The notes: generated by a model not told the origin, from the letters alone. DNA of 64,000 nucleotides from an uncultured Candidatus Saccharibacteria bacterium (GCA_964450735.1 CAYVDC010000007.1:1374-65373); one strand, 5' to 3'; counted from the stretch's first letter, positions 5,574 through 45,966 are shown. Program-made: numbers and translations.

Positions 5574-6530
5574 CTATATAACTTCAATTTCCATTAATTC
5601 CCTTAAAAGTCCGGTATTACTTCCGGCGAGAGTTTTTTTATGGTCATCGGTAGCGAATCCTGTTTTGGCGATGGAACATGCAACACCTTGGTCTTTGTTA
5701 CTCTTATCCCACAGTACCATCATCTCATCAATCGAGAAAAGTTTTGTTTCAACTCCACGTGATACTACTGGCCAGTGATGCCCAGATGCTTCCAAAACTT
5801 TTTCAACTTGCTCTCTGGAAAGTACTGCGGTTTTAATCATGGCTTGTAGCGCGTGATTGTGGTTGTAACTTAGCTTTCCTAAAAACAAGATCGAAATCAA
5901 CGTACCAGCAGAAAATTTCCTTTGTGTAACAGCCAATTCAACTGCTTTTGTGTGGAAGTTGCTTCTCGAAATTATTTTAAGCATTTCATCCGTAGAAATT
6001 TTTTCCCACTCTACTAACTCTGAAATTGCTTTTTTGAAAAAATCACACACCTCACGGTGTCTGAATTTCTGTTCGCCCAAAGCTTTTATTTCATAGTCAT
6101 CGGTAATTTTTTCAGCAATTCTAAACAATTCATCCGCAATGCGCACTTCTGACATTTCTTGTACAGCCAGCATTCCTTTTCTTAGTGCGATGGCAACTGC
6201 TTCAGTAACACAGAATGGTAAATGTTCGTCATTGAGTAGTAAGTAAAGCATTTCATTTTCTGTAAGGTTGCCGGTGTTAATGATAGCAACAGCAACTGGC
6301 CATTTTTGTTTTGCTTTTGAGTAAATCTCCAAAAGCTGTTTTCCTGAATACTTAGAATAGCTGAGCTGCCAATTTGTTTGTGTTGCAGCCATCATTGGAA
6401 TTTCAAAAAAGTCGGTATCGTCAAATTGGTTAGACAAGGCAAATTCTATCAATTCTTCATTAGTAAATTTGCTTTGGTCTTTTAATTGCAGTAGTTCAAA
6501 AATTTTTTTTGGGTTTAATGCTTGTTCCAT
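5574..6530 (-). CDS. hypothetical protein (318 aa, no recognisable domain)
   Basis: Long uninterrupted ORF with good coding texture; no motif recognised. Confidence 0.5.
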   Translation of the reverse strand: MEQALNPKKIFELLQLKDQSKFTNEELIEFALSNQFDDTDFFEIPMMAATQTNWQLSYSKYSGKQLLEIYSKAKQKWPVAVAIINTGNLTENEMLYLLLNDEHLPFCVTEAVAIALRKGMLAVQEMSEVRIADELFRIAEKITDDYEIKALGEQKFRHREVCDFFKKAISELVEWEKISTDEMLKIISRSNFHTKAVELAVTQRKFSAGTLISILFLGKLSYNHNHALQAMIKTAVLSREQVEKVLEASGHHWPVVSRGVETKLFSIDEMMVLWDKSNKDQGVACSIAKTGFATDDHKKTLAGSNTGLLRELMEIEVI

Positions 6531-6695
6531 TGGAAGTATATTTATATTTATATTTAGAGATATTCTCTACTTTAGGCATGCTTACAACCTGCGCAAAGTA
6601 GAGAATATTTCCGTTTTCAAAGAATAGAGATTTGAGAATTATAGCATACTTAATTAAGTATGTCAAAGTGACTCTATATATGGTATAGTAGTGGA

Positions 6696-8756
6696 GTGAA
6701 AAACCAACAAAAACCCCACCAAAACACTACTGGGCACCATACTGCAAAACCAGCTCACAACGGCAAAAAAGGTTCTCAGAAAAGAACAAACACTGGCGCT
6801 AAAAAATTCCATCATGCAACACCTGCGCACAAACAGCACAAAGGCCCGTCTATAAAATCCGGCACTCCCCTTGTCGGAACACTTTTGGTATCTGCACGCG
6901 GATACGGAAATGTCAGATTGCCTGACCAGAAAGAAAACATCAGCATCGACCCATCAGAACTAAACACAGGACTTCACGGCGATACAGTAGAAGTAGTCAT
7001 CGATACAAAAACAAAACGCTACCCCACTGCAAAGGTCACCAAGGTTATTTCGAGAGGCAAAGTTGGATTTACTGGCGTGCTTACGCAGACCGATGGTGTC
7101 TATCAGCTCAAAGCTGACGATCCACGCATGTATCGCACCATGATCATCCCAAAAGATGCTCTCCACGGAGCAAAAGCTGGTGAAAAAGTATTTTGTGAAA
7201 TTACTAAATGGGAAGATGCAAAAGCAGAACCGATTGGTAAAGTTTCAAAAATTCTCGGCATGCCCGGACATAACAATGCTGAAATGACAGGTATCGCTCT
7301 CGAGCGTGGATTCTCTGCTGACTTCCCTCGCGATATTGAGATGGAGGCAAATGAACTTGCAGAAAAAGGAATCACTGCCGATGAAATTGCCGGCCGCCGC
7401 GATATGCGAAACGTTCCGACATGCACCATCGACCCAGTCGACGCAAAAGACTTCGATGACGCCCTCTCAGTAAAAGCGCTTCCAGATGGAAACTATGAGA
7501 TCGGCATCCACATCGCCGATGTGTCTCACTATGTTCGTCCAGGGACTGCACTTGATCGCGAAGCTCTCGCTCGTGCGACTTCGGTGTATCTTGTTGACCG
7601 AACGATCCCCATGCTTCCTGAAGCACTTTCAAACGATCTCTGTAGCTTGAAACCAAACGTTGACCGATTGGCGATGAGCGCTATCCTTACACTCACTCCT
7701 GACGCTCGCATCATCGGAGCGTGGTATGGCAAAACAGTCATACATTCCGCAAAACGATTTGCCTATGAAGAAGCGCAGGTAGTTCTCGAAAGCGGCGTAG
7801 GACCGATGAAGGACGAACTCCTTATTCTCAACACGCTCGCTAAAAAATTGCTTGCTAAGCGAATCGAGGAAGGAACGCTCATCCTCGATACCGACGAAGT
7901 GAAATTCGAGCTCGATGAACATGGAGTTCCAATTCGCGCATACCGAAAAGTTCGCGTCGACGCTCACAAGCTCATCGAAGAATTTATGCTTCTCGCCAAC
8001 AAAAAAGTCGCCGAAGTTTTCAAAGCTGAAGAAAAGAAAGACGGCATCGGCGTCTACCGTATTCACGGACTTCCTGATGCAGACAAGATCGCTGATTTTA
8101 CATTTCTAGTAGAAAATCTTGGCTACAATGTTCCCAAGGGACCGATGACTCCAAAGATATTTGATTCGCTACTCAAAGAACTTGCGGACGCTCCAGAAAA
8201 AGACATGATCACCAGCGTTCTTATACGCTCGATGGCTAAGGCAATCTACTCCACAAAAAATATCGGTCACTTCGGACTTGGCTTCGACGACTACACTCAT
8301 TTCACATCTCCAATCCGCCGATACCCTGACCTCGTTGTACACCGCATGCTTCAAGCAATTCTCACGCATCACTCTATCCGCAGCAAAGATGTAAAGCATT
8401 ATGAAAAAATGATGAATCATTCATCGGAACGCGAGCGCAATGCGGCCGATGCAGAGCGTGCATCTATCAAATACAAACAGGTAGAATACATGATGACACG
8501 CATCGGTTCAGAATATCTCGGCGTCATTACCGGCCTGACTGAACGCGGATTGTTCGTTGAGGAACTCGAAACCAAATCAGAAGGCATGGTACAATTAAAA
8601 GAGCTCGGCAACGACATTTTTGTTCTTGGAGAACGAGACCTCGCTCTTATTGGAAAGAAAACAAAAAAGCGTTTCCGCGTTGGCGATCAGATCAAAATCA
8701 AAGTACTTCGCGCCGACCTTGCTGATCGAGTGATCGACTACGGACTCGCTGCCTAA
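6696..8756 (+). CDS. rnr: ribonuclease R (RNB-family 3'-5' exoribonuclease) with basic N-terminal tail and C-terminal S1 domain
   Basis: RNB motifs CTIDPVDAKDFDDALSV and HFGLGFDDYTHFTSPIRRYPDLVVHR; C-terminal S1-like segment. Confidence 0.9.
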   Translation: MKNQQKPHQNTTGHHTAKPAHNGKKGSQKRTNTGAKKFHHATPAHKQHKGPSIKSGTPLVGTLLVSARGYGNVRLPDQKENISIDPSELNTGLHGDTVEVVIDTKTKRYPTAKVTKVISRGKVGFTGVLTQTDGVYQLKADDPRMYRTMIIPKDALHGAKAGEKVFCEITKWEDAKAEPIGKVSKILGMPGHNNAEMTGIALERGFSADFPRDIEMEANELAEKGITADEIAGRRDMRNVPTCTIDPVDAKDFDDALSVKALPDGNYEIGIHIADVSHYVRPGTALDREALARATSVYLVDRTIPMLPEALSNDLCSLKPNVDRLAMSAILTLTPDARIIGAWYGKTVIHSAKRFAYEEAQVVLESGVGPMKDELLILNTLAKKLLAKRIEEGTLILDTDEVKFELDEHGVPIRAYRKVRVDAHKLIEEFMLLANKKVAEVFKAEEKKDGIGVYRIHGLPDADKIADFTFLVENLGYNVPKGPMTPKIFDSLLKELADAPEKDMITSVLIRSMAKAIYSTKNIGHFGLGFDDYTHFTSPIRRYPDLVVHRMLQAILTHHSIRSKDVKHYEKMMNHSSERERNAADAERASIKYKQVEYMMTRIGSEYLGVITGLTERGLFVEELETKSEGMVQLKELGNDIFVLGERDLALIGKKTKKRFRVGDQIKIKVLRADLADRVIDYGLAA

Positions 8757-8766
8757 CTAATTACCA

Positions 8767-11073
8767 ATGAAAGAACAAATATACAACTTCATACAGAGCT
8801 ATAAAAAACAGCTCCTAATTGGAGTTAGCGTATTTGTTGTTCTTGCTCTAGCACTGACAGTATTCCTTGTCGTCAGACACAATTCACGAGATGTTGAAAC
8901 TGCAGGCGCTTCATACCAAGTAGATACTTCAAGCCCGCTCTCAATGCCCGTGCCCGATGTGCCGACGAATATTTCATTTGAAAATATTCCCGATGAATCA
9001 TTCCTGCCCCCTCAGACAGGCAAATTGATCCGCGCAAACATTGTGACCATGCAGCTTGTCAGATACGAGAACGGCCAGATTGTCGGAACTCCAATGAAAA
9101 TCCTCGCCAAAGGTAAGACTGGTTCATTCTGGGAAACACCTGGCGGAAGCTACCCTATTATAGACTCCGAAGAAGACTACTATTCAGAAAAAGCTGGAGC
9201 GTTTTTCCCATACACCATGCACCTCTTTGGAAACTACATGATACACGGAGAGCCGCATGACAAAAACAACATCACCCTTTCCAAAAACCAAAATGGCGGC
9301 ATCAGGCTTTCAAACGACGATGCCAAAACATTGTACGTATGGTCCGATAGCGACACTCGAGTTTCGGTTTACAGCGATAGCAAGATCAAGCCGCAAGCAA
9401 TTTCATCGGAGTCTGTCTATGTAACTGCAACTGGATCCGTCCTGCCAAAAGTATCAGCCGAGAGCTATATCGTTGCCGACCTCGATACTGGCGAGGTAAT
9501 TCTTGAAAACAACATGGATGTTGTTCATCCAATTGCTTCAGTTTCAAAACTCATGACTGCCCTCATTTCTCTCGACACAATGAATCAGTTCGAGTTTGCA
9601 ACTGTTTCCAAAAAAGCGACGCAAGTATACAGCGTCAACAAATTTACCCCTGGTGAGCAGATCGCTCTATCCAATCTGATCTATCCGCTTCTTCTGCCTT
9701 CAAGCAATGTTGCGGCAGAAATCATCGCCGAACATCCAGGCCGAGAAAAATTCATGACTGAAATGAATGAAAAGGCTGCGGCGCTTGGAATGAAGAATAC
9801 TCACTATGATGATCCATCAGGACTTTCAGCGAACAACACTTCTACTGCCTACGATCTCTTTTTGCTCACCCAAAACCTCTTCAAAGAAAAATCATTCGTT
9901 TTTAATATCACTCTTGTTCCCTCGTATAACGCCCAAGGACACTACTGGAAAAATATCAGCCAATTCCTCAAGGTTCCTGGCTACCTCGGCGGCAAAAGCG
10001 GACAAACAGGAGAAGCAAAGCAGTCAAACGTTGCGCTCTTCAAACTACCGCTCTCAGAGTCCGATAATCGAAACATCGCTATCATAGTATTGCGTTCAAA
10101 TGACCGATATACAGATACGATGAAAATCTTTAACTTTGTTAAAAGCCGTGTTGTTTATGGCAGCAACAAGAACATTGTCATTACCGACAACAATGACCTC
10201 TCGAGCAATATCACGCTCGCTTTTGCTGGCGATATCATGCTTGATCGCGGCGTTAAATTTTCCGTACGCAAAAACTTTGCCGGAGATTACTCAGAACTTT
10301 TCAAAAATCTCGATATCATGCAAAAAAGCGATATAGCTTTTGCAAACTTAGAAGGACCGGTTTCCGACAAAGGCACCGACCTGCACAATTTGTACTCATT
10401 CCGCATGGACCCTCCTGTCCTTGATATTATCAAAAACGCTGGCTTTGACGTGCTGTCATTTGCAAACAATCACGTTGGAGACTGGGGTAATGAAGCATTC
10501 AATGATAGCTTGGACCGCATGAATACTGCGGGGATTACATATGTTGGCGCCGGCAAAACACGGAAGGAAGCAATCCAGCCGGTAATTCAAACTATCAAGG
10601 GAATGAAGATCGGCTTCATTGGTTTTACCGATGTTGGACCTGATAAGCTTGCCGTAACAGACAATACTCCCGGCGTCTTGCTCGCAAGCGATCCAGATTT
10701 TGAAAGCATTATTTCAAACGCAAAACAGCAAGTCGACTCGCTCGTGGTTACGTTTCATTGGGGTATTGAATACCAACAGAGCTCTTCCACTCGCCAGCAA
10801 GAACTTGCTCACAGAGCTATTGATGCTGGCGCGAACCTTATCATCGGAACCCATCCTCATGTAACGCAAGAAATCGAAACATACCGGGGAGGATTAATAG
10901 CCTACTCGCTCGGCAATCTCATCTTTGATCAAAACTTTTCCGAAGCAACCATGCGTGGCACGATCCTCCAAGTTACCCTCGACGCAAGAACAAAATCATT
11001 CAAGCGCTACGACAAATATATCGTCAGATTTACGCCTCAATTTCAACCACTTGTTCCAGAACTCTCACAATAA
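8767..11073 (+). CDS. tri-domain membrane-anchored cell-wall protein: L,D-transpeptidase-like (YkuD fold, Cys to Gly) + serine D-Ala-D-Ala carboxypeptidase (peptidase S11/PBP5-like) + CapA/PGA_cap metallophosphatase-like domain
   Basis: N-terminal TM helix. The YkuD-like block is TPGGSYPI...MIHGEP...SKNQNGGIRLSNDDAKTLY, which lacks the HGC-IRL cysteine. The S11 domain has SxxK (ASVSKLM), SxN (PSSNVAA) and KSG (GGKSGQTG). The C-terminal block FAGDIMLDRG...SFANNHVGDWG...IIGTHPHVTQ is typical of CapA-type metallophosphoesterases. Confidence 0.8.
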   Translation: MKEQIYNFIQSYKKQLLIGVSVFVVLALALTVFLVVRHNSRDVETAGASYQVDTSSPLSMPVPDVPTNISFENIPDESFLPPQTGKLIRANIVTMQLVRYENGQIVGTPMKILAKGKTGSFWETPGGSYPIIDSEEDYYSEKAGAFFPYTMHLFGNYMIHGEPHDKNNITLSKNQNGGIRLSNDDAKTLYVWSDSDTRVSVYSDSKIKPQAISSESVYVTATGSVLPKVSAESYIVADLDTGEVILENNMDVVHPIASVSKLMTALISLDTMNQFEFATVSKKATQVYSVNKFTPGEQIALSNLIYPLLLPSSNVAAEIIAEHPGREKFMTEMNEKAAALGMKNTHYDDPSGLSANNTSTAYDLFLLTQNLFKEKSFVFNITLVPSYNAQGHYWKNISQFLKVPGYLGGKSGQTGEAKQSNVALFKLPLSESDNRNIAIIVLRSNDRYTDTMKIFNFVKSRVVYGSNKNIVITDNNDLSSNITLAFAGDIMLDRGVKFSVRKNFAGDYSELFKNLDIMQKSDIAFANLEGPVSDKGTDLHNLYSFRMDPPVLDIIKNAGFDVLSFANNHVGDWGNEAFNDSLDRMNTAGITYVGAGKTRKEAIQPVIQTIKGMKIGFIGFTDVGPDKLAVTDNTPGVLLASDPDFESIISNAKQQVDSLVVTFHWGIEYQQSSSTRQQELAHRAIDAGANLIIGTHPHVTQEIETYRGGLIAYSLGNLIFDQNFSEATMRGTILQVTLDARTKSFKRYDKYIVRFTPQFQPLVPELSQ

Positions 11074-11076
11074 AAA

Positions 11077-11102
11077 ACAGCCCTCGAATATTCGAGAGCT
11101 GT
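11077..11102. terminator. bidirectional terminator between convergent genes
   Basis: Perfect palindrome CTCGAATATTCGAG extended by ACAGC/GCTGT, flanked by A/T runs. Confidence 0.5.
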
Positions 11103-11123: not shown

Positions 11124-12362
11124 TTAGCAAATGTGCCAGTAACCCAACAAGTAGGTTATCAAAGCAGCAACTGCCGTAGGAAATGTCAGAACGAACCATA
11201 ATGCGGCAACTTTGCATGTCCATGGCTTGGTTGCCCAGTACGCTCTTTGTTTCAAAAACCATCCAATGGCAGGGCCAGAATTTCTTGAAACGAAATTCAT
11301 AAACCAGCGTATAAGTAGGTAGAACCCAATAGCGCCAAAGAAGGCGAAAAAGTAATTCCAGAAATAGATTATCAGTGCAACAATGCCTAAGCACACAATG
11401 ATCAAACCTATCAACAACCAGTTCATCCATTCAGTGCCTTTTTCAGGAGCACGCCTGGTGTACACAAACTGTGGAGTTTCTTCTATTGCATATTCTTTTA
11501 CAACTATCGCTGAAGGTTTTTTGTATAAACTATACAGGAACCATCCTAGGGCGATCAGGCCAAGTAAGGATAATAACTCTATCGGAAACGCAACGGGTGC
11601 GGTTGCCGGAATTACAGTAACTTGTCTCAGTCTTGCATGCCCATCTATGATTACATAGCGCATGTCTGGCAAGGATGCTACAACATACAATGAATCTGTT
11701 TCATCGGTTTCCGAGAATTGCTCCTCGTTCCAGGTGATTCCAGTCACCGTTACGCTATCGTAACCTTTTGCATGCAGGTTCTCTACAATCAACGGCGTAG
11801 TACGTTCTACACGTGCTTGTGCAACTTGCGCATTCTCTGGCTCTAAAACGCCAGGTTGAATACTTGCCATGAAGCCGTTCTTGATCGCTTCAGGCGATGC
11901 AGTACCGTGTGCTGAAAAGTAAATTTCCGGCGTAGTTATAGAAAAGTTTTTAATTCCCTGAGCCTTGCGTACGGCTACTGCTTGTTTGTCATAATCCAAC
12001 AACAAGTCGAATTTGAACTTTTCTATCGAATCTGCCAGCAAGTTCGCCAATGTAGCAGCAACCTGTGCTTCTACATTATCGCTCGGAGCGACAATTTCGA
12101 ATTTCGGAGCTACCGGATATGGCACCTTAAAGCTGAAGGTAACGACCGTGTCGGTGTACTTTTGGCTTTCAACTTGTACTGGGGAAAGAATTCCCAGCCA
12201 GTTGAATGTGCGCTTACCATTCTCCATTTTATAGAAGCGGTGGTATGCGGTAACATTATTACCTTTTTTGTATTGGGTAATAGCGAAAACTACTAAAAAC
12301 AGGGCGCTTACGGTTAATAGAATTGCTGAGATTACAACGGAGGTACGGAATACTTTTTTCAT
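11124..12362 (-). CDS. hypothetical membrane protein (signal anchor, large extracytoplasmic domain, C-terminal multi-TM bundle)
   Basis: ORF with N-terminal hydrophobic segment and four or more C-terminal TM helices. Confidence 0.5.
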   Translation of the reverse strand: MKKVFRTSVVISAILLTVSALFLVVFAITQYKKGNNVTAYHRFYKMENGKRTFNWLGILSPVQVESQKYTDTVVTFSFKVPYPVAPKFEIVAPSDNVEAQVAATLANLLADSIEKFKFDLLLDYDKQAVAVRKAQGIKNFSITTPEIYFSAHGTASPEAIKNGFMASIQPGVLEPENAQVAQARVERTTPLIVENLHAKGYDSVTVTGITWNEEQFSETDETDSLYVVASLPDMRYVIIDGHARLRQVTVIPATAPVAFPIELLSLLGLIALGWFLYSLYKKPSAIVVKEYAIEETPQFVYTRRAPEKGTEWMNWLLIGLIIVCLGIVALIIYFWNYFFAFFGAIGFYLLIRWFMNFVSRNSGPAIGWFLKQRAYWATKPWTCKVAALWFVLTFPTAVAALITYLLGYWHIC

Positions 12363-12544: not shown

Positions 12545-14827
12545 TTATTTAGCTATTTTTACTGCCTCATCAAACTTGATTGAAAGGAGCTTGGATCCCC
12601 CGTCGGCACCAATGGTCACACCATAGAGGACGCGTGCTCGGGACATTGTTTCGCGATTGTGCGTGACGACGATAAGCTGAGAATACTTTGAGAGGCTTTC
12701 GATCATGTCGCCATAGCGTCGTGAGTTTGCCTCATCAAGAGCTGCGTCAGTTTCATCGAGCACCAAGAATGGCGGCGGATTGACCTGTGACATAGCAAAG
12801 AGAAGCGCGATAGAAGTAAGCGATCGTTCTCCTCCTGAGAGCATGTGGAGGTCTTTGACTTTTTTGTGCGGGAGCGAAACGTTGATCTCAATGCCGCGTT
12901 CGAATTCAAAGTCAGCGTCATTTGCAACAGGGATCTCATCCGCTTCTTCGTCTTCGCCTTTTGATGGACGCTTGTGCTCAACGACGATTGAAAGGAATGC
13001 ATGTCCGCCGCCGAACATGAGTGAGAAGAAGTTAGTGAATTCTTTGTTGATCTTTTCCACACCGGTTTTGAATTCAGTGTCGATCTTTTGTTTGAGATCG
13101 CTAATGAGTGCGCGGAGTTCGGTTACCGCCTGATCGATATCTTGAAGTTCACGAGCCAAGAACTCGTCTCGAGAAACTGTTTCTTCGAATTCTTTGACGA
13201 CTTCGGTTCCACCTTGAGCGCCAGCGTCTTCGAGCTTGTATTTGATTCGGTCAATTTTCTTTTTGAGCTCTTCCTGCTGATGCTTGTCGGCGATTTCTTC
13301 GCTTGGCTGGAATCGCACAGCTTCAAGGCCCACGAGGATGCTTGCCTGCTTGAGTTCGTCCTCAAACTCAGCTTCGATGCGCGCGAGGTTTTCCCGTTCA
13401 AGAGCAATGAGACGTAATTCGGATTCGAGTTCCTGCTTCTTTGCTTTGAGTTCGTAGTATGCTCGTTCCTGATCACGAATGACGCTTTCATCTGATTTCT
13501 TTTCTGATTGGAGTTTGGCGATCTCAGCCTGCACTGCCATTTTGGCTGTATCAAGTTCAGCGATCTCATTTTCAACAGACTGAATGCCGTCGCGAAGTGT
13601 CTTGATCTGCGCCTCTACATGAGAGCGGTCTACAATGGGACTCTGATTTTTGTCCGTCTTTCGGTAATAAATAAACTGTTCGAATGTCTCGCGCACGCGA
13701 GCAACAGTCTCACGGATCTCACCGATATCCTGAAGTGAAAGAATTGTTGCCAAATCTCGGTCAAGTTCGCTAAACAATCCTTCAACTTCCTGAAGAGAAA
13801 CAGCAATGTCTTCTGGAGATCGTTCCTTTTCTGGAGCGCGGAGCTGCTCCTCGAGGAGTGCGATTGAGCCTTCTACGCGTCCGAGTTTGCGAGTAAGTTC
13901 AGCTTGGGATGTGAGGTGCTTGCTGTATTCAGTCTGAAGTCGCGCAGCCTCTGCGCTTGTTCCAGTATCAACGGTTGCTGTCTGGTTCTGAGATGATTCA
14001 TGGGTGCGAATATTCGCCTCTGCCTCGGAAATTTTCTCTCGGAGCGCATTTGTTTTTTCTTCTTGGGCAGCTTTTTCTTTTGCAATAAATGCTGATTGTT
14101 TGCTGAAATATTCTTTGTACAATCCCCCAACTTCGGTGCGGAGTTCCTGCGCCTTTTCGATTTTCTCTACCTGCTTTTTCAAGAATCCAATGTGCGGAGC
14201 GATCTCTCGGCGGAGCGACTGCACTTCTTTCATGTTCGCAAGCGTCTTGTCTAGTTTGCGCTCGCTTTCGCGGAGGCGGTACTGGTATACACGAAGACCA
14301 AGCGCATCCTCGATCATGCCGCGGCGGTCTTTTGGATTTGCTGAGAGCAATCGGTCTGCTTCACCTTGGGAAATAATATGGTGGCCAGATGAGCCGATAT
14401 TTACAGAAGCAACGAGCTCAAGAATATCTTTGAGGCGAACTTCAGTGCCGTTTAGTTTGTAGGTATTTGATCCATCGCTGTATACCTCGCGAGAAATAGA
14501 GATCTCATCGAAGTCGAGATTGATTGCTTTGTCCCCCGTCTTTGGAAGTGAGAATACTTTGCGTGAGTTGTCGAAAACGATCGTGACTGATGCGCGAGAA
14601 AGAGACGCCAATGCTTTGGAGCCTTTGAAGATCATGTCTGCTCCGCCTTTGCCGCGGAGAGATTTGATGGATTGTTCTCCGAGCACGAAACGAATTGATT
14701 CAACGACGTTTGATTTTCCTGATCCATTTGGGCCGACGATAGCCGTTACCGGCGTATCGAAATCAAGCATCGTTTTTTTGGCGAAGGATTTGAATCCGGA
14801 GAGTTCGAGGCGTTTCAACATCAGCAT
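12545..14827 (-). CDS. smc: SMC-like chromosome segregation ATPase (short, 760 aa)
   Basis: N-terminal Walker A (GPNGSGKSN), long coiled-coil middle, C-terminal signature LSGGERSLTSIALLFA plus Walker B LVLDETDAALD. At 760 aa it is shorter than canonical SMC, so RecN/SbcC-like cannot be fully excluded. Confidence 0.7.
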   Translation of the reverse strand: MLMLKRLELSGFKSFAKKTMLDFDTPVTAIVGPNGSGKSNVVESIRFVLGEQSIKSLRGKGGADMIFKGSKALASLSRASVTIVFDNSRKVFSLPKTGDKAINLDFDEISISREVYSDGSNTYKLNGTEVRLKDILELVASVNIGSSGHHIISQGEADRLLSANPKDRRGMIEDALGLRVYQYRLRESERKLDKTLANMKEVQSLRREIAPHIGFLKKQVEKIEKAQELRTEVGGLYKEYFSKQSAFIAKEKAAQEEKTNALREKISEAEANIRTHESSQNQTATVDTGTSAEAARLQTEYSKHLTSQAELTRKLGRVEGSIALLEEQLRAPEKERSPEDIAVSLQEVEGLFSELDRDLATILSLQDIGEIRETVARVRETFEQFIYYRKTDKNQSPIVDRSHVEAQIKTLRDGIQSVENEIAELDTAKMAVQAEIAKLQSEKKSDESVIRDQERAYYELKAKKQELESELRLIALERENLARIEAEFEDELKQASILVGLEAVRFQPSEEIADKHQQEELKKKIDRIKYKLEDAGAQGGTEVVKEFEETVSRDEFLARELQDIDQAVTELRALISDLKQKIDTEFKTGVEKINKEFTNFFSLMFGGGHAFLSIVVEHKRPSKGEDEEADEIPVANDADFEFERGIEINVSLPHKKVKDLHMLSGGERSLTSIALLFAMSQVNPPPFLVLDETDAALDEANSRRYGDMIESLSKYSQLIVVTHNRETMSRARVLYGVTIGADGGSKLLSIKFDEAVKIAK

Positions 14828-24566: not shown

Positions 24567-25949
24567 ATGAGTAAAAAAACAGCCGCTTCCAAAAAAATGT
24601 GGAAGCTCGGAGCCAAAGAATTCAATACGCAATACTTTGACTACAACAAAGATGGAGACTTGGTTGTCAAAGAAGGCAACAATACATACAACCTCCGCTA
24701 CTTAGCGGAAAAAATGGGCACATCGCTCGAAATCTTTTTCCCGTTCATCGTTGAAGAACGCGTGGAGGATTTTCTTGATCTCACCACTTCCCTCATTAAG
24801 AAACTAAAGTACCAGGGAAAGTTCTTTTACCACTACCCAATGAAGGTAAACCAAAACAAGGAAGTTGTTATGGCCCTCATCGGCGAAGGCGCGAACATTG
24901 AGACAGCTTCATACAACGAACTCTACTTGGTCAAGAAAATGCTTGAGCAAGGTACTTTCAATACCAATATCCGCATCCTCTGCAATGGACCAAAGACTTC
25001 TGCATACATGTCACTCATCGACGAACTCCAGCACAAAGGCCTCCGTATTGTGCCAATCATCGAAGGACCGAACGAACTCTCAGCGCTTCAGCACTCACGC
25101 TACGACGTTGGTATTCGACTCGACATGCCGGTCAAAGCAGACTCGATCTGGAACAAGCCGATCGACCGCTTCGGATTCCGAGCGGATGAAATTTTGGAAA
25201 TCGGCAAATTCAAGCACCTCCGTATCCTTCACTACCACGTCGGTTCGCAGATCAACAAGGCAAATGATATTCTCGGCCCGATCAAGTACGCGCTCGATGT
25301 CTTCTTTAAATTAAAAGAAAAGAACCCATCACTCGACACGCTAGATATCGGCGGCGGCATGCCAATTCCCTACGAGCGTAAAAAAGGATACAACATCGAG
25401 AAGATCATGGAAAATATCTTCGAGCTTGCAAAGCGTGAAGCCAACAAGCGAGAAATGCCTCACCCAAACATCATCTGTGAATGGGGCCGCTACATGGTCG
25501 CTCCAGCTCAGGTCACTATCTACAAAGTTATCGATACCAAGAAAATCACCTACAAGAAAAGCGATGCCAAAAAATGGTACGTTATCGACGGCTCATTCAT
25601 GAATGACCTCCTCGATACGTGGGCAATCAAGCAGAACTGGTCAATAGTTCCCGTAAACAACGCTCGCGACGAAGATCTCACTGACGTATGGCTCGGCGGA
25701 TCAAGCTGCGACTCAGATGATATTTACAAAGGAACCGACGGAGCACTCCGACTTCCCGACTTCGATTCAAGCGAAGATGCAAAGCCCCTCATGATCGCAG
25801 TCCTCGACACCGGAGCATACCAAGACCCCCTCGCTTCACACCACTGCATGCTCTCCTCACCGCTCAAGCTCATCGCCCAAAACGGACACATCATGGTAGT
25901 CCGCAAACGCGAAACCCCTGACGACGTCGGAAAAGCGTTCGGATGGTAA
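24567..25949 (+). CDS. PLP-dependent (fold-III) decarboxylase, compact SpeA-like arginine decarboxylase
   Basis: YFDYNKDGDLVV resembles the SpeA N-terminus; PLP-Lys motif HYPMKVN; GEGANIETASYNEL; GGG loop LDIGGGMP. Good GGAGG RBS. Specificity for arginine is inferred from neighbouring agmatinase. Confidence 0.65.
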   Translation: MSKKTAASKKMWKLGAKEFNTQYFDYNKDGDLVVKEGNNTYNLRYLAEKMGTSLEIFFPFIVEERVEDFLDLTTSLIKKLKYQGKFFYHYPMKVNQNKEVVMALIGEGANIETASYNELYLVKKMLEQGTFNTNIRILCNGPKTSAYMSLIDELQHKGLRIVPIIEGPNELSALQHSRYDVGIRLDMPVKADSIWNKPIDRFGFRADEILEIGKFKHLRILHYHVGSQINKANDILGPIKYALDVFFKLKEKNPSLDTLDIGGGMPIPYERKKGYNIEKIMENIFELAKREANKREMPHPNIICEWGRYMVAPAQVTIYKVIDTKKITYKKSDAKKWYVIDGSFMNDLLDTWAIKQNWSIVPVNNARDEDLTDVWLGGSSCDSDDIYKGTDGALRLPDFDSSEDAKPLMIAVLDTGAYQDPLASHHCMLSSPLKLIAQNGHIMVVRKRETPDDVGKAFGW

Positions 25950-26082: not shown

Positions 26083-27105
26083 ATGCAAAACAACTTACCA
26101 ACACTTGAATTCATCCTCAAGCATTACCAAAACTTCAACGCTCGTGCGACAAAGGACGCAACTATCGCATACTGGCGCCACATGGAACAAGGCGGCAAGA
26201 TGTTCTGGGCAATTGCAGGTGCGATGTCATCAGCACAGCTCGGTATCGTTCTCGCTCCAGCAATCCGCGCAGGATTGATCCACGGTATTTCTTCAACTGG
26301 CGCAAACCTCGAAGAATCACTCTTCCGACTCGTTGCTCACAATCACTACAAGGACTTCCCAGACTACCGATACTTTACCAAAGAAGACGACACAAAAATC
26401 CTCGAAGACCGCATGCGCCGCGTCACTGACACATCGATCCCAGAAGACGAAGCATTCCGCGTCGTCGAAAAGCAGATCGTACCAACATGGATCAAAGCAA
26501 CCGAGGACGGAACACGAAAATTCTGGCATGAATATTTCTATGATCTCATCCAGTCAGTAGACAAGAAAGATCACCAAGGAAAGACTGAGGAATGCTGGCT
26601 CCTCGCAGCAGCTGAAGCAAAGCTCCCTATCGTTGTTCCAGGATACGAAGACTCAACATTCGGAAACATCTTTGCTGCTCACGTAAAAGCAGGTGAAGCT
26701 TCTGCATCAATCGCAAAATCAGGAATCGAATACATGGGAGAGTTTTATGACAACTACCAGGAACTCTCAAAAGGCGCTGGCGTAGGATTCTTCCAGATCG
26801 GCGGAGGAATCGCTGGTGACTTCCCAATCTGCGTCGTTCCATCACTCAAATACGATATGGAAGTCAAAGACGTAAAGCCGTGGGCTTACTTCTGCCAGAT
26901 CTCAGACTCAACCACTTCATACGGTTCATACTCAGGTGCAACTCCAAACGAAAAGATCACGTGGGACAAGCTCACTCAGGATACACCGATGTTCGTTGTT
27001 GAATCAGATGCAACCATCGTTGTTCCACTTATGCTCAACGCATTGATGGAAGCGAAAGCAAATCCAGAAGCAGCAAACAAACTCATCGCGCAGTACACAA
27101 AATAA
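26083..27105 (+). CDS. deoxyhypusine synthase-like protein (probable homospermidine synthase)
   Basis: DHS-family blocks AIAGAMSSA, GISSTGANLEE, VVPGYEDSTFGN, IGGGIAGDF. Confidence 0.75.
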   Translation: MQNNLPTLEFILKHYQNFNARATKDATIAYWRHMEQGGKMFWAIAGAMSSAQLGIVLAPAIRAGLIHGISSTGANLEESLFRLVAHNHYKDFPDYRYFTKEDDTKILEDRMRRVTDTSIPEDEAFRVVEKQIVPTWIKATEDGTRKFWHEYFYDLIQSVDKKDHQGKTEECWLLAAAEAKLPIVVPGYEDSTFGNIFAAHVKAGEASASIAKSGIEYMGEFYDNYQELSKGAGVGFFQIGGGIAGDFPICVVPSLKYDMEVKDVKPWAYFCQISDSTTSYGSYSGATPNEKITWDKLTQDTPMFVVESDATIVVPLMLNALMEAKANPEAANKLIAQYTK

Positions 27106-36340: not shown

Positions 36341-38713
36341 TTACACAGATTCTTGTAGTGGTGTTTCAGGCTCTTCTGCTGGAGCAGCAGGAGTAGGGGT
36401 TTCTTCTGGAACTGGAGTGTCGATAACTGGATTTTCTAATGGTGGAACTACTTCTTGTGTTCCTTCTGTTGTAGGCTCGACAGGTTGCAGTTCTGGCTCA
36501 GGAACTGGATCAGGTTCAGGGGCAGGACTAGGAGCAGGGACAATAACTGCTGTTCCGCACTCACCCGCAGTTTTTACAAAATCACCGTTAGCCAGTGTTA
36601 CGCAGTATGGAAGATGAGAAACAGTATCGTACATTGTAAATCCAGACGGTGTTTCTGGTGTTCCAAAGACAATGCTTTTTACATGAAGTACCATATCTGC
36701 GAATCGGCTTGCGAGCGAACTTGTGTCGCCTATTCCCTGAATAGAAGAAATTTTTATATCAAGTTCCTGAACAGCCTTGGTTAATACTGGAATGATTCCA
36801 GTATAGTTAAGCGAAAGATATTTGCCTTCTGTTACCAAATCTGGGAGAACAGTGCGGACTTCCTGGGCTATGAAGCCGATCTGTGGAGATCCGTCGCTAA
36901 TCATTCGGTATGTTACAGGACGCAGTGAATTGATGGTTTGCAAACCGTATGAGCTCGATGAAATATTTTGTTTCAATCGTTGGTCAGAAGAAATATTCAA
37001 GCTTTGTGTAATAACTCCGGTTGCGAAGATTTTTCCATCAACCTGGAGAAGTGCAGACCCATCGTCGATCTGATTGTTAGTATTTTCAAAATTATTGATA
37101 CCGATTCCAACTTTTCCATTTTTCAAAATTGTAAGAGCATCACTGTCTGAGCCTGTCCCCACACCATTACCAACAACGAAGAGTCGGTCCCTTGCATCAA
37201 AATCCAACGGGTCAAATGGTGTATAGTTTGTAGTGCTCAATCCTACTGACACTTCCGCGAACGATTTTGAAGATAATCTATAACCAATTGCGGTTGAGAC
37301 CTTGCCGCTCGCGGTTGCCTGCTGACCCATTGCAGTAGCATACTGGCCACTTGCAACAGTACCACTACCAAACGCAGTTGAAGTCGAACCTGAAGCAAGC
37401 GTACTCTGTCCGAACGCAGTTGCATTTTCATTGCTTGCGACAGAACCTGTGCCAAACGCGGTTGAAGCGTCAGCGCTTGCCGTACTTGATATTCCAAAAG
37501 CAGTTGCACCTGTACTGGACGCTGTTGTGGCAAAACCAAACGCAGTAGAAGCTATCCCAATGGAATCAGTATCTACTCCAAAGGCCACTGAACCATCATC
37601 ACCGGCATAGGTATTTGTTCCAAACGCTACAGTAAAGCGACCAACTGCATCTGTATTGTAACCGAAGGCCACGGCATAATCCCCAGAAGCGTTATTGCCG
37701 GAACCGAACACTGTCGTAAAATCACCGCTAGAAATAGTTCCGCTTCCGAGCGCTACACTGTGAAGGCCTGAAGCAATTGGTGCATCCAAACCTCGATCAT
37801 TGTCAGCAAAACCGATAGCAACGGAACGGTTGCCAATGTTGCCACCTTGCCATAAGCTGCCATTGACTGAACCAAGGCGTATCGCTTTTTGATCATAATT
37901 GAAGAAGAATTTTTGTTCCTCATTGAATTGGGTTACTGGAGTCATCTGCCACTTTTCTCCATCAATATAATTTGAAGAAACAAATGTAACATATACTCCA
38001 TCCTGCAATAGATCTGGAACTCCCGCATTGATTGGATTTCCTGTTGAAACAGTTACACCATTCAAAGTAAAAGTATAATCCGTTCCGCTTGGTTCAATTA
38101 TTACTGCATATACATCTGTGATACTGGAACCTGTATATGGTCCTTCAAAACCGACATCAGGGAATGAGCCAAAGTTTATAGGATTAGTTGTTGGTCCGAC
38201 GATTATCGTTGTTCCAGTATTATTATTAAAACTATCTGAATTAAATATAAATCCATTGCTTTTTACAGCCAGGCGATTTTGCCCGAGCATAATTTCGTTA
38301 GCTTCACTGGTTACTGCTCCATTCCCAATTGCGAACGAATTTGCCTGGCTTGCTGTACTAGCAGTTCCAAGTGCAATATTACCGATTTGCCCGAATTTCG
38401 CCATTTGAGAATTGTTCGTCTTAATGACAAAATCGGCTGCATCCGTCGTCCCAACAAAATTCGTTGTTCCTCCGTCAGTGCCTGCGTTTCCGGTAAGCCC
38501 CCAACCAACACCGTCACCAGTATTTTGAAAACAATTAGAAGAACCAGGAGCGCAACCTGGGTCGAGAATAGAATCTCCGAACAAATACCCGCCAGATGGA
38601 GGAACCGTGCCTGGAGAAAGCTGCGCAGAAAAAACTACAGCCCCATAACCCAAAACTGACAATACAGCTACGGAAAGAGAGACGAATTTTTTATACGGAA
38701 AAGCACGGAACAT
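36341..38713 (-). CDS. secreted fibre-like surface protein, paralog 1: signal peptide, conserved Cys-containing N-module, Gly/Ala/Ser/Thr-rich repeats (Hep_Hag/beta-helix-like), peptidase S74 intramolecular chaperone autoproteolysis domain, Pro/Glu-rich C-terminal tail
   Basis: N-terminus VLGYGAVVFSAQLSPGTVPPSGGYLFGDSILDPGCAPGSSNCFQNTGDGVGWGLTGNAGTDGGTTNFVGTTDA. The repeat region has recurring ..ATAFG..STASG.. units. The S74 block is SDQRLKQNISSSSYGLQTINSLRPVTYRM...IGFIAQEV...PVLTKAVQEL. The tail is PAPSPAPEPDPVPEPELQPVEP... Confidence 0.75.
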   Translation of the reverse strand: MFRAFPYKKFVSLSVAVLSVLGYGAVVFSAQLSPGTVPPSGGYLFGDSILDPGCAPGSSNCFQNTGDGVGWGLTGNAGTDGGTTNFVGTTDAADFVIKTNNSQMAKFGQIGNIALGTASTASQANSFAIGNGAVTSEANEIMLGQNRLAVKSNGFIFNSDSFNNNTGTTIIVGPTTNPINFGSFPDVGFEGPYTGSSITDVYAVIIEPSGTDYTFTLNGVTVSTGNPINAGVPDLLQDGVYVTFVSSNYIDGEKWQMTPVTQFNEEQKFFFNYDQKAIRLGSVNGSLWQGGNIGNRSVAIGFADNDRGLDAPIASGLHSVALGSGTISSGDFTTVFGSGNNASGDYAVAFGYNTDAVGRFTVAFGTNTYAGDDGSVAFGVDTDSIGIASTAFGFATTASSTGATAFGISSTASADASTAFGTGSVASNENATAFGQSTLASGSTSTAFGSGTVASGQYATAMGQQATASGKVSTAIGYRLSSKSFAEVSVGLSTTNYTPFDPLDFDARDRLFVVGNGVGTGSDSDALTILKNGKVGIGINNFENTNNQIDDGSALLQVDGKIFATGVITQSLNISSDQRLKQNISSSSYGLQTINSLRPVTYRMISDGSPQIGFIAQEVRTVLPDLVTEGKYLSLNYTGIIPVLTKAVQELDIKISSIQGIGDTSSLASRFADMVLHVKSIVFGTPETPSGFTMYDTVSHLPYCVTLANGDFVKTAGECGTAVIVPAPSPAPEPDPVPEPELQPVEPTTEGTQEVVPPLENPVIDTPVPEETPTPAAPAEEPETPLQESV

Positions 38714-38807: not shown

Positions 38808-40493
38808 TTACTGCACTACTACTTTTGCGGTAGTATCACCCGCTTTTAGGAAATAAATTCCTTTCGGCAAGTCTAATTGCAGTTGCTGTTTTGGAGAAGT
38901 AAGCTGATACGAAATCTGCTTGCTACCAATTACGTCATAAACATCTACCTTACCCAGGTTACGATAATCCTCGCTGGTTACAAAAAATGTACCATTATTA
39001 GGATTTGGGAATACTGTAAATGCGGTTTTAGAAACCGAAGCAACACCGGTCGGCGTGGCTATGGCAGGATATGTTTCAACCCGTAATTTGCTTGCATCCG
39101 CTCCGAACATCTCTGCTCGTATACCAGCGGGGAATTTGTAAATAAGGTTGTTGTACCTCATTTTCATATCAACCGTAGTGCCAGCAGGGATCGTTCCCTG
39201 TTGTACATACTGCACAGCTTTACTTTCAACCTGCAATGAGTTATCCGATGCATCAGGATTAAATATTTCTATTACTGAATTTTGGACAACCGTATCGAAT
39301 GGCGCTGCGCCAAGCGTGAACGGATTGTTTGCAGTACTGCTTACATAATACATCGGCAACCGCATGTCGGGGCCAATCTGCACATCTCTGTTTTGAGCAG
39401 GAATGTGTGTAGTAGCGAAATATTTCTCTTTCCAAAAAACGGAGCTCGCTAGATCAATCTGATTTCCATTTACGATAGCGAAATTAAATTTCGTAAAAAT
39501 CGTCATCAAGGCTGAATCTGACGCTCCAGGAAACATGTTTCTGAACACATCGAGCAACGCATCGATACCTACAGTATCACCAGCATGCCTGCCGTCATTA
39601 AAGGCTTGTGCCGCTTGAGCGGTACCAGTGTCGATAATAAACGTTGGAAACACATAACTAAACGTTATGGATTGTCCTGGAAGGAGTTTTAATTTTCCGT
39701 CCATATCCATAGTAGGAAACTGCTCCATTGGTGCGTAGGTTACTGGGTTGCGAGTGAAGAAATCTGCATACATCTCATTGCTAACTTCTGTTAGTTCGTA
39801 ACAGGAACGCGTTGGTGTTGTATAGCAATATCTTTTGGATGAATCCAGCCAAGAACGATGTTGAATGATATCTTCGGCAGACATGTAATTGTCGATCGTA
39901 CCGGGAACCTTATCCAAGGACCGCGGCTCGCCATCATCAGTATCAACCAAAATAGTATCGTTATTGTGGAACAATTCACCAAGGGTATGACCCTCGGTAG
40001 TCACAATACGCAGTGAGTCAGCTGAAATCATTCCTGTTTCCACCGCTACATGGTTGAAGAAGTTTTCACGTTCTCCGCACATGTGCGAGGCATTAGCCAG
40101 AAAAAATCCGCATGGGGTAAACTGCTTGCGTGCAACAAACCGGTCGAATCCATTGGGGCCGTACGAAGTGTACTCGGGATTCCGCAGGTGTACGATGTAC
40201 GGGCTTTTAACAAGCCTGGTCATCTCTCTGGTAAATCCGAAGGGGTCGCCTGTTGAAGCCATGTGATCATAATATGTTTGCTTGGTAGCAAAAATTATAT
40301 TATCACTGTCTTCAAACTGGGTTAGTAGGTAGAACTCCATGGGTACTGAATCGGTGTTTTGAATCGTCACACTAAAGCTGTCATTCGGGTTTGGAACATT
40401 CGCCGGAAAGCCTTTGAATAGTTCAACAACTTGTGCGTGTGAGGTAAAGGTAAAAAGCATTGCGGCAAAAGCCAGTAGATAGAATTTTTTCAT
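38808..40493 (-). CDS. secreted protein with C-terminal T9SS-type (Por) sorting domain
   Basis: Signal peptide MKKFYLLAFAAMLFTFTSHAQ. Last ~70 aa FPNPNNGTFFVTSEDYRNLGKVDVYDVIGSKQISYQLTSPKQQLQLDLPKGIYFLKAGDTTAKVVVQ match the Por_Secre_tail pattern (NP..., YD..G, LP.G(I/V)YF.K, K.V..). Confidence 0.6.
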   Translation of the reverse strand: MKKFYLLAFAAMLFTFTSHAQVVELFKGFPANVPNPNDSFSVTIQNTDSVPMEFYLLTQFEDSDNIIFATKQTYYDHMASTGDPFGFTREMTRLVKSPYIVHLRNPEYTSYGPNGFDRFVARKQFTPCGFFLANASHMCGERENFFNHVAVETGMISADSLRIVTTEGHTLGELFHNNDTILVDTDDGEPRSLDKVPGTIDNYMSAEDIIQHRSWLDSSKRYCYTTPTRSCYELTEVSNEMYADFFTRNPVTYAPMEQFPTMDMDGKLKLLPGQSITFSYVFPTFIIDTGTAQAAQAFNDGRHAGDTVGIDALLDVFRNMFPGASDSALMTIFTKFNFAIVNGNQIDLASSVFWKEKYFATTHIPAQNRDVQIGPDMRLPMYYVSSTANNPFTLGAAPFDTVVQNSVIEIFNPDASDNSLQVESKAVQYVQQGTIPAGTTVDMKMRYNNLIYKFPAGIRAEMFGADASKLRVETYPAIATPTGVASVSKTAFTVFPNPNNGTFFVTSEDYRNLGKVDVYDVIGSKQISYQLTSPKQQLQLDLPKGIYFLKAGDTTAKVVVQ

Positions 40494-45063: not shown

Positions 45064-45966
45064 TTATAAATCAAAAAAATCAGTATCGATTTTATATATT
45101 TTTAACTCTTGTTCTTGGGTTACCCCTAAACCAACACTAAGCATTAACTCGGCCAGCTTTTCCCCATTAATAAGCACAATCTGAACATGGGAAATTGCAG
45201 CAACAGAAACAGCATCATTATTGAAATCAGAGGTAGTAATAAAAACGCCTTTCTTTGCATTTTTACCTAAAATATCTCCGATAAATTGCGACACTTCCCT
45301 TCGGCCAACCTTATTACCCCATCTTTTGGCTTGTACATATATTTTTTCAAACCCGAGATGGTCCCCCTTAATAATACCATCTATACCACCATCACTTGTA
45401 TAGCGGGTAACTTCGCCGACGCCGTACCCCATTTTAACCAATAAATCTACGACTAATTTTTCAAATAATTGAGGATGCATGGATGCCACTTTTTCCAAAA
45501 TCTCTTCCTTTACAAGATCATTGATTTTGTTTACATTGGCAATTATATTTTCTTGAGGAGTAATATTTGAATCTTCCGAAACATCTTCGCCTTCGCTCCT
45601 ATTTTTTTCATCCTTATTTCCCCAGGTCTTCACATCCCAAAAATCAGGAAATTTCTTTAGATCTTTGACACTTAAACTTGTTAGGTTTTGTTTTAGTAGA
45701 TCTAGCCCCCTTTCTGTAATAATATATTTCCTTTTCTCCTGTGTTTTATCTATCAGCTTCGCTTTAAAAATAAAAGTTCTTGCCCATGCCAGTCTGTCGA
45801 GAAAAATTTTTCTTCCTGGAGTGTTTGGATATTGGGCGTTTTTATCTTCATCAGTCAAATGAACCTTTTGGGCAATAACATCTTCAAAAACCTGCCAATC
45901 ATGCGGCTGGCCATCCTTAAAGCATTCTAATAATGGGAGCATCAGCTCATTAAATTTGGGAATCAT
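45064..45966 (-). CDS. mrr: Mrr-family restriction endonuclease (Mrr_N winged-helix + Mrr_cat PD-(D/E)xK nuclease)
   Basis: The C-terminal block EKLVVDLLVKMGYG...YTSDGGIDGIIKGDHLGFEKIYVQAKRW is the Mrr_cat signature (D...IDG...E.K, VQAKR). The N-terminal winged-helix-like region (MIPKFNELMLPLLECFKDGQPH...) resembles Mrr_N. The gene sits 4 nt from the pheT start and 14 nt from the pheS stop. Confidence 0.8.
   Translation of the reverse strand: MIPKFNELMLPLLECFKDGQPHDWQVFEDVIAQKVHLTDEDKNAQYPNTPGRKIFLDRLAWARTFIFKAKLIDKTQEKRKYIITERGLDLLKQNLTSLSVKDLKKFPDFWDVKTWGNKDEKNRSEGEDVSEDSNITPQENIIANVNKINDLVKEEILEKVASMHPQLFEKLVVDLLVKMGYGVGEVTRYTSDGGIDGIIKGDHLGFEKIYVQAKRWGNKVGRREVSQFIGDILGKNAKKGVFITTSDFNNDAVSVAAISHVQIVLINGEKLAELMLSVGLGVTQEQELKIYKIDTDFFDL

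Follow-up and report, generated by a model that had tools for sequence, protein, structure and literature searches.

We analyzed a 64,000-nucleotide stretch of DNA from an uncultured Candidatus Saccharibacteria bacterium (GCA_964450735.1, CAYVDC010000007.1:1374-65373; hereafter the window), concentrating on an open reading frame (ORF) at positions 8767 to 11073 directly downstream of rnr. According to the ORF list, it starts with ATG and runs uninterrupted in a single plus-strand frame. The 768-residue product, here called the window protein, combines an N-terminal transmembrane helix with three domains that belong to the YkuD-type L,D-transpeptidases (LDTs), the S11 D,D-peptidases and the PGA_cap family. 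Its YkuD-like domain has lost the catalytic cysteine, and our analysis points to a non-catalytic module retained beside two apparently active domains. The locus comprises the following features:

8767..11073 (+), whole gene, encoding a 768-residue bitopic membrane protein with the order transmembrane helix, YkuD-like, S11, PGA_cap (ORF list, Pfam, AlphaFold2 (AF2))
8806..8883 (+), N-terminal transmembrane anchor, residues ~14-39 (AF2 helix 13-39, Kyte-Doolittle)
8890..8955 (+), disordered, fast-evolving linker, residues 42-63 (predicted local distance difference test (pLDDT) <50)
8965..9381 (+), YkuD-fold LDT-like domain without nucleophile, residues 67-205 (Pfam, Protein Data Bank (PDB) profile, Foldseek, nonsynonymous divergence (dN))
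9244..9246 (+), His160 codon at the retained catalytic-His position (IHG; aligns to the His of YkuD IHG)
9298..9300 (+), Gly178 codon GGC at the catalytic-Cys position (canonical GCIRL, here GGIRL; profile alignment)
9445..10158 (+), S11 (class C low-molecular-weight penicillin-binding protein (PBP)) DD-peptidase domain, residues 227-464 (Pfam, DacB, Foldseek)
9538..9549 (+), SxxK motif with the acylation serine, S258-V-S-K261 in ASVSKLM (motif table, conservation)
9700..9708 (+), SxN motif, S312-S-N314 in PSSNVAA (motif table, conservation)
9994..10002 (+), K(T/S)G motif, K410-S-G412 in GGKSGQT (motif table, conservation)
10207..11031 (+), PGA_cap domain (CapA/PgsA/MslH-type, calcineurin-like fold), residues 481-755 (Pfam, MslH match)
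6696..8756 (+), rnr (RNase R/RNB), directly upstream (RNB family)
11077..11102 (no strand), strong hairpin between convergent genes, 11 bp with 6 G-C and a T-run on the minus strand (terminator scan)

The original prediction, made from the sequence alone, described a membrane-anchored protein with three domains at this position and proposed domain searches as a check, and both the anchor and the domains were recovered. All three Pfam domains exceed their own gathering thresholds, with YkuD at residues 87-201 (33.6 bits, E = 7.2e-08, gathering cut-off 23.4), Peptidase_S11 at residues 227-423 (127 bits, E = 1.1e-36) and PGA_cap at residues 483-722 (245 bits, E = 1.3e-72), the last covering model positions 1-255 of 255. 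In NCBIfam, no named equivalog cut-off was reached by the tri-domain protein; the best matches were PRK11669, a PbpG-type endopeptidase family (101 bits versus a cut-off of 294), and the MslH family NF038314 (80.6 versus 700). The full-length AF2 model, computed from an 83-sequence alignment, has a mean pLDDT of 90.8 and a predicted template modeling score of 0.73 and consists of an N-terminal helix (residues 13-39), a disordered linker (42-63) and three folded domains. Kyte-Doolittle hydropathy peaks at 2.97 at residues 16-36 and remains at or below 1.6 in every other segment, so the anchor is the sole hydrophobic segment. We regard the three fold assignments as established. The topology is most consistent with a type II (N-in, C-out), membrane-anchored, extracytoplasmic enzyme of a Paceibacterota (Patescibacteria) bacterium, a conclusion covered by the joint probability given below for our best explanation as a whole.

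The loss of the catalytic Cys from the LDT-like domain is genuine, as had been predicted from the replacement of the HGC-IRL cysteine in SKNQNGGIRL (residues 172-181). When searched as a single sequence against the PDB with phmmer, the N-terminal domain gave only chance matches to LytS (E about 0.8), and a profile from 28 family members was needed for it to match solved LDTs. This profile retrieved 5bmq (1e-13), Bacillus subtilis YkuD (2.5e-7), the fusion 4xxt (5e-7) and Enterococcus faecium Ldtfm (1.5e-4). The 'GC' column of its 'sgGCiRL' segment aligns with the Cys of YkuD 'SKGCIRM', placing Gly178 at the nucleophile position, and its 'iHG' aligns with the catalytic His. The Gly178 codon, GGC, is one transversion from TGC. 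A cysteine that is present but shifted is impossible, since the entire 768-residue protein contains none. His160, found in all 73 tri-domain homologues, lies 18 residues upstream of position 178, within the 14-18 residues by which the catalytic His precedes the Cys in YkuD enzymes. An AF2 model of residues 64-226 alone (pLDDT 86.7) returned LDT/YkuD-fold proteins for all of the top 50 Foldseek hits in the PDB (TM-scores of 0.5-0.63), with 5bmq as best match (E = 5e-8, TM-score 0.63). Thus, the domain resembles YkuD-type LDTs (1Y7M, Stackebrandtia 5BMQ and Ldtfm 1ZAT) in its fold, His, GxIRL Arg and 18-residue His-nucleophile spacing but differs by Gly for Cys, leaving the (S/T)xGC(I/L)(R/N) motif of competent LDTs without its nucleophile, and by replacement of the subfamily residue H138.

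A homologue search covering 5.8 billion proteins returned >851 relatives, including a 100% match to the window protein (P0001), and the best 120 were examined. The same three domains were present in 73 of these, at lengths of 709-812 aa and in independent NCBI, JGI, ENA and Logan assemblies. YkuD is missing from the remaining 47; 46 of them consist of S11 and PGA_cap (about 590-640 aa), and one (P0103) adds a C-terminal VanY in the order S11-PGA_cap-VanY. Named sources were Candidatus Paceibacterota, Nomurabacteria and Patescibacteria. When GTDB species representatives were scanned, at least 595 loci turned up across Paceibacterota/Parcubacteria lineages, among them Nomura-, Vogel-, Yanofsky-, Nealson-, Colwell-, Portnoy- and Falkowbacteria, with L006 as the closest representative orthologue of the window gene (83% identity). 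Database entries for these proteins read 'CapA family protein' or 'D-alanyl-D-alanine carboxypeptidase', and our literature searches found no paper on this domain fusion. S11-PGA_cap is the common core architecture in this phylum, YkuD-S11 fusions are abundant and the tri-domain protein is the union of these two standard fusions. The original description of three normally separate enzymes, therefore, stands for the domains themselves but overstated their separateness.

The same survey addresses whether the gene could be an artefact, either because separate genes were joined by misassembly or a frameshift or because one domain is a decaying pseudogene remnant. The sole hint in this direction is the weak Pfam score of the YkuD domain (33.6 bits). 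Fusion by misassembly or frameshift, named in the original prediction as an outcome that would overturn it, was rejected on the basis of the architecture recurring at the same length in 73 independent assemblies, the single unbroken ORF and the confident three-domain AF2 model. As the dN of the Cys-less domain is also fourfold lower than that of the linker (see below), we give an artefact of either kind practically no credence.

How the Cys loss is distributed became apparent from position 178 of the 73 tri-domain proteins, where Cys occurs in 32, Gly in 25, Asp in seven, Ser and Ala in four each and Trp in one. In a neighbor-joining tree built on the S11 and PGA_cap region, the window protein belongs to one clade that comprises P0001-P0039 (identity of at least about 50%), with Gly, Asp, Ala or Ser instead of Cys in 37 of its 39 members. 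A nested pair in this clade, P0017 and P0019, carries Cys and shares the Y138 and 'IPHN' features of the clade. Outside, the canonical 'YSGGCIRL' dominates, with three isolated further losses, in P0046 (Asp), P0051 (Trp) and the P0061/P0084 pair (Ser). An exhaustive search with a profile across 1.84 billion representatives detected 6132 proteins with this YkuD subfamily (E up to 1e-3), of which the top 151 were classified by architecture. These comprised 120 two-domain YkuD-S11 proteins (Cys in 119), 19 with YkuD only (Cys in 18) and 12 tri-domain proteins (Cys in nine), and the counts within this set indicate that nucleophile loss is concentrated in proteins also bearing PGA_cap. Judging from these comparisons, the loss is a clade-level event accompanied by a few independent losses rather than a trait of the whole family, and sister tri-domain proteins keep GCIRL.

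To assess selection, we compared the window gene with its L006 orthologue. Because synonymous sites were saturated (proportion of synonymous differences >=0.75), only dN was compared across domains, without dN/dS ratios:

YkuD-like domain, dN 0.100
S11 domain, dN 0.063
PGA_cap domain, dN 0.106
Transmembrane anchor and linker (residues 1-66), dN 0.414

Mean pairwise identities within the Cys-less group were likewise similar (0.56 for the YkuD-like, 0.60 for the S11 and 0.61 for the PGA_cap domain). These values indicate that the Cys-less domain is still under purifying selection and evolves about as slowly as the two catalytic domains. Nearly all residues that are conserved in the Cys-bearing relatives are kept in the Cys-less group, among them W122, E123, P125, G127, S140, P148, F154-N156, H160, G161, P163, G177, I179, R180, L181, A186 and T197; about 20 site or fold residues besides H160 and R180 stay invariant, and only H138 to Tyr and F153 to Leu switch between the two groups. 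Residue 178 itself varies (Gly, Asp, Ala or Ser), which means that a replacement nucleophile was never fixed there. The simplest reading is that the Cys-less domain is a pseudoenzyme that would retain its substrate cleft, and the former LDT domain is probably a non-catalytic, stem-binding module. That the module might bind rather than catalyze had been suggested at the outset and is the best-supported reading, considering the unfixed position 178, the preserved site and a dN like that of the catalytic domains.

The same conservation could instead reflect enzymatic activity through other chemistry, with Ser/His-dependent or water-mediated hydrolysis involving the invariant S140 and H160 and with an L,D-carboxypeptidase or amidase as the resulting activity. 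S140, H160 and R180 are invariant in Cys-bearing and Cys-less groups alike, selection on the domain is as strong as on the catalytic domains, and a YafK-type YkuD-fold protein was reported to turn over beta-lactams in a Ser132-dependent, Cys-independent manner (PMC13400389). However, that activity is weak and acts on beta-lactams rather than peptidoglycan, and S140 is at most a tentative equivalent of Ser132 of Lpg1514, with a different spacing to the His. Position 178 (Gly, Asp, Ala, Ser and once Trp) offers no substitute nucleophile at the site, and H138, conserved in Cys-bearing relatives, disappeared along with the Cys. We consider such an activity unlikely and retain the non-catalytic module as the preferred assignment.

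The second domain carries the complete S11 motif set that had been noted in the original prediction (ASVSKLM, PSSNVAA and GGKSGQTG). Across 83 sequences, K261, S312, S313 and G412 are invariant and S258, N314 and K410 are >=90% conserved. B. subtilis DacB (3mfd) is the best solved sequence relative (1.7e-28), with an alignment spanning all three motifs, and Foldseek assigned the penicilloyl-serine transferase fold with TM-scores of 0.8-0.83 to 4rye, 5zqa, 5tr7 and 1skf (root-mean-square deviation 2-3 A). The domain shares its three motifs, 25-32% identity and TM-scores of about 0.8 with class C S11 PBPs (DacB/PBP5* 3MFD, Mycobacterium tuberculosis Rv2911 4RYE/4P0M and PbpG-type endopeptidases). 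Unlike PBP5-type S11 enzymes, it has no C-terminal beta-sandwich domain and amphipathic anchor and is, instead, connected to an N-terminal transmembrane helix and two flanking domains. With all DD-carboxy/endopeptidase catalytic motifs intact, the domain looks active; by sequence, it is a family member rather than an orthologue of a characterized PBP, and as DD-carboxypeptidase and endopeptidase are not separable on this basis, it may be either.

For the PGA_cap domain, the closest characterized protein is MslH (PDB 8GQ9), the sole PGA_cap homologue with both a solved structure and a biochemically defined function, which is a Ca(II)-dependent epimerase of a peptide's C-terminal residue, in this case the Trp of a lasso peptide (PMC10406935). 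MslH was the best match for residues 481-755 by sequence (3e-21) and ranked first for the whole model in Foldseek (E = 2.8e-22), sharing the calcineurin-like fold. Its metal ligands are E44, N87, H259 and H261, and its dyads are H88/D91 and H295/D11 (PMC10406935). HMMER alignment mapped seven of these eight functional residues to the window protein (D11/E44/N87/H88/D91/H259/H295 to D489/E529/N568/H569/D572/H664/H698). Among the site residues D489, E529, N568, H569, D572, H664, E668, H696 and H698, D489, E529, H569 and D572 are invariant, and N568, H664, E668 and H698 are >=90% conserved. With its metal site and both His/Asp dyads kept, the domain looks active. MslH differs from it in being a soluble cytoplasmic RiPP (ribosomally made, then post-translationally modified, peptide) enzyme, about 440 aa long and about 20% identical, with an extra substrate-recognition domain. 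No lasso-peptide cluster lies near the window gene. PgsA/CapA of Bacillus likewise belongs to the PGA_cap family and has one N-terminal transmembrane helix; its PGA_cap domain was experimentally located outside the membrane (PMC7490850), which matches the topology proposed here. PgsA, however, stands alone at ~380 aa, and its gene belongs to a pgsBCA(E) operon; in the window protein, the domain is fused to wall peptidases, without pgsB or pgsC close to the gene.

From its PGA_cap domain, the protein had originally been assigned to a family implicated in poly-gamma-glutamate and capsule anchoring and was thought to link D-Ala trimming with attachment of a polymer to the wall. Spelled out, this model couples D-Ala trimming to the covalent linking of poly-gamma-glutamate, or of a polymer resembling a capsule, to peptidoglycan, with PGA_cap serving in polymer synthesis or anchoring. 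The capsule-anchoring enzyme in Bacillus anthracis is CapD, not CapA. In the window and in five related loci inspected as neighborhoods (L001-L005), no PgsB/PgsC (CapB/CapC)-like genes were found within 8-10 kb, and the sole domain capable of transpeptidation-type attachment has lost its nucleophile. On the other side, poly-gamma-glutamate production depends on CapA and PgsA, the founding members of the Pfam family, the domain lies outside the membrane as in PgsA, and the ancestral Cys-bearing versions hold an LDT, a fold that attaches proteins to peptidoglycan elsewhere (review PMC12729407). CapA has no demonstrated activity, and our literature searches on PgsBCA structure and function gave no defined activity for PgsA either; the group that discovered MslH suggested an epimerase role for CapA/PgsA as well (PMC8179263). 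We consider attachment of a polymer by the window protein unsupported and improbable.

Genomic context provided information on the setting of the gene. Its start codon lies 10 nt past the rnr stop codon, the position directly after rnr given in the original prediction, and a promoter scan of this gap found none better than background. The gene order, with S16-KH ... rnr and the tri-domain gene followed by a convergent unknown membrane protein, a short SMC and RNase III, is kept at 52% identity (L001 and L002), around a Cys-bearing tri-domain gene (L004) and around a two-domain orthologue (L005). RNB lies upstream of the orthologue in L001, L002, L004 and L005. In neighborhood statistics covering 85 loci, 21 of 23 S11-PGA_cap genes and seven of nine tri-domain genes directly follow rnr. 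The rnr and tri-domain genes, thus, form a conserved pair that is probably co-transcribed, and the shared linkage of two- and three-domain genes indicates that the locus is orthologous and part of the core genome, with YkuD as its variable N-terminal addition. Twelve of 55 PGA_cap-only ORFs in the 85 loci also lie directly after rnr, and L005 contains a stand-alone 388-aa PGA_cap gene (9893-11059, +) directly 3' of its S11-PGA_cap gene; the conserved linkage may, therefore, be that of rnr with PGA_cap rather than with S11. In L003, an Amidase_3 plus PG_binding_1 gene abuts the orthologue. The 64-kb window contains no paralogue of the YkuD, S11 or PGA_cap domains. It encodes MurC- and MurD-like ligases, indicating that the organism builds its own peptidoglycan.

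These ligases bear on the intended substrate. An alternative target would be the peptidoglycan of a host bacterium, with the protein serving an epibiont as an attack or scavenging enzyme that frees D-Ala or processes host stems. Patescibacteria are described as often epibiontic with reduced biosynthesis (PMC11665869), and surface-fibre-like proteins abound in the window (Peptidase_S74 together with YadA_head, and collagen repeats). Against this, the uncleaved N-terminal transmembrane helix and short ~25-residue linker hold the protein at its own membrane, the gene is surrounded by housekeeping genes and keeps its position throughout the class, and the Mur ligases imply that the organism has a wall of its own. 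A role on host peptidoglycan seems, in our view, quite unlikely.

Taken together, our best explanation, to which we assign a probability of roughly 60%, is an extracytoplasmic processor of peptidoglycan stem-peptide termini that carries a non-catalytic, former LDT module. In this model, the ancestor would have combined, in one protein, an active LDT and the DD-peptidase providing its tetrapeptide donor. Several known systems couple these activities. E. faecium DdcY and Ldtfm form a functional DD-carboxypeptidase/LDT pair. In the solved structure 4XXT, a Zn DD-carboxypeptidase-like domain is fused to a YkuD domain, following the same coupling logic. LDTs take tetrapeptide rather than pentapeptide donors. 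In Escherichia coli, YcbB obtains these donors from the S11 enzyme PBP5, which is both necessary and sufficient for the supply (PMC5089857). The Cys-bearing YkuD-S11 relatives fit this logic, as a fusion that joins tetrapeptide producer and consumer explains the abundance of Cys-bearing YkuD-S11 and tri-domain proteins. The clade of the window protein differs from all three systems in having an LDT half without thioester capacity and an extra PGA_cap domain. With the nucleophile gone, the transpeptidase step is no longer possible in this clade; LDT chemistry would have been abandoned and the domain retained, most probably to bind tetrapeptide stems and to position or regulate the two active domains. 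S11 would remove D-Ala5 or open 4-3 cross-links. As the least certain step, PGA_cap would then act on the same stem-peptide terminus in a metal-dependent acid/base reaction, for which C-terminal epimerization as in MslH, the only precedent, is the leading candidate and hydrolysis the alternative. Every partner fused to the S11-PGA_cap core is an enzyme of the stem-peptide terminus, with YkuD at the N-terminus and VanY at the C-terminus (P0103). It is from this consistency, together with residue conservation, that we infer the binding role and the PGA_cap substrate.

Several observations weigh against this explanation. Stem binding by the Cys-less domain is suggested by conservation alone. The Cys in P0017 and P0019 suggests that the site may toggle, by Gly-to-Cys reversion, or be lost repeatedly. 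The middle residue of the S11 K(T/S)G motif varies to an unusual degree within the family (Ser, Gly, Arg, Asn, Pro or Thr). In the PGA_cap domain, the MslH ligand His261 falls on Gly666, with the >=90% conserved E668 nearby, and by its NF038314 score the window protein is not an MslH orthologue. A PGA_cap reaction on peptidoglycan is proposed through guilt by fusion, and the picture for the whole family, at the probability stated above, draws on sequences and predicted structures. The genomic scope was 64 kb, and other LDTs or PgsB/PgsC may lie elsewhere. A more specific version, in which PGA_cap domains of Paceibacterota are stem-peptide enzymes that, for example, epimerize the residue exposed by S11 while the Cys-less LDT captures and hands over stems, is a possibility that we consider rather unlikely.

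Further features of the window were recorded. The convergent gene beyond the hairpin (11124-12362, -) encodes a 412-aa membrane protein without Pfam match; in the same slot, L001 (10579-12240, -) encodes a 553-aa protein, also without Pfam match and present in L002 as well, which may be a conserved unknown partner. The next gene (12545-14827, -) encodes an SMC_N protein of just 750-760 aa, as do L001 (12264-14531), L004 (12600-14867) and L005 (12536-14788). Canonical bacterial SMC proteins have about 1,180 aa, and conservation of the short length points to a coiled coil that is genuinely reduced in this lineage. On the other side of the locus, a 12/12 sigma-70 consensus (TTGACA, 17 nt, TATAAT, with TG) at 6638-6666 (-) precedes a gene without Pfam match (5574-6530), and the divergent rnr ORF opens with a low-complexity, Lys/His/Gln-rich extension of ~55 residues (6696-6860, +).

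More distant genes included three large proteins with Peptidase_S74, an endosialidase intramolecular chaperone domain, two of them also with YadA_head repeats, and a 574-aa protein with six stretches of collagen triple-helix repeats. This group (36341-38713, 40614-43229, 60110-62494 and 58237-59961, all -) looks like a surface-fibre or adhesin cluster, possibly for epibiont attachment to a host. A 561-aa protein (38808-40493, -) ends in a Por_Secre_tail, the T9SS sorting signal (33.8 bits versus a cut-off of 27), which is unexpected outside Bacteroidota-type secretion systems. The usual pheS-pheT pair is split by a gene for an Mrr-type restriction endonuclease (Mrr_N and Mrr_cat; 45064-45966, -), which is flanked by genes at 45980-46702 (-) and 43255-45060 (-) for the PheRS alpha (tRNA-synt_2d) and beta (B3_4/B5/FDX-ACB) subunits. 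An Orn/Arg/DAP decarboxylase gene (24567-25949, +) adjoins a deoxyhypusine-synthase-like gene (26083-27105, +), and the two look like a polyamine pair of the homospermidine type in an otherwise minimal metabolism.

Every domain of the tri-domain protein is of a known kind, and the mechanism itself is a proposal. What is new is a nucleophile-less LDT domain that is clade-wide and under selection, providing a natural case of an L,D-transpeptidase domain turned pseudoenzyme, still selected and with active sister lineages for comparison. Also new is the S11-PGA_cap core of Paceibacterota, which occupies a conserved genome position in a very large uncultivated class, recruits only enzymes of stem-peptide termini (YkuD and VanY) and provides a testable hypothesis that the CapA/PgsA family acts on peptide C-termini at the cell surface. 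Patescibacteria cell-wall metabolism is essentially uncharacterized, and the window protein would be an accessible recombinant target for its study. If true, the stem-peptide epimerase reading would represent a new peptidoglycan-modifying activity at a conserved core-genome position.

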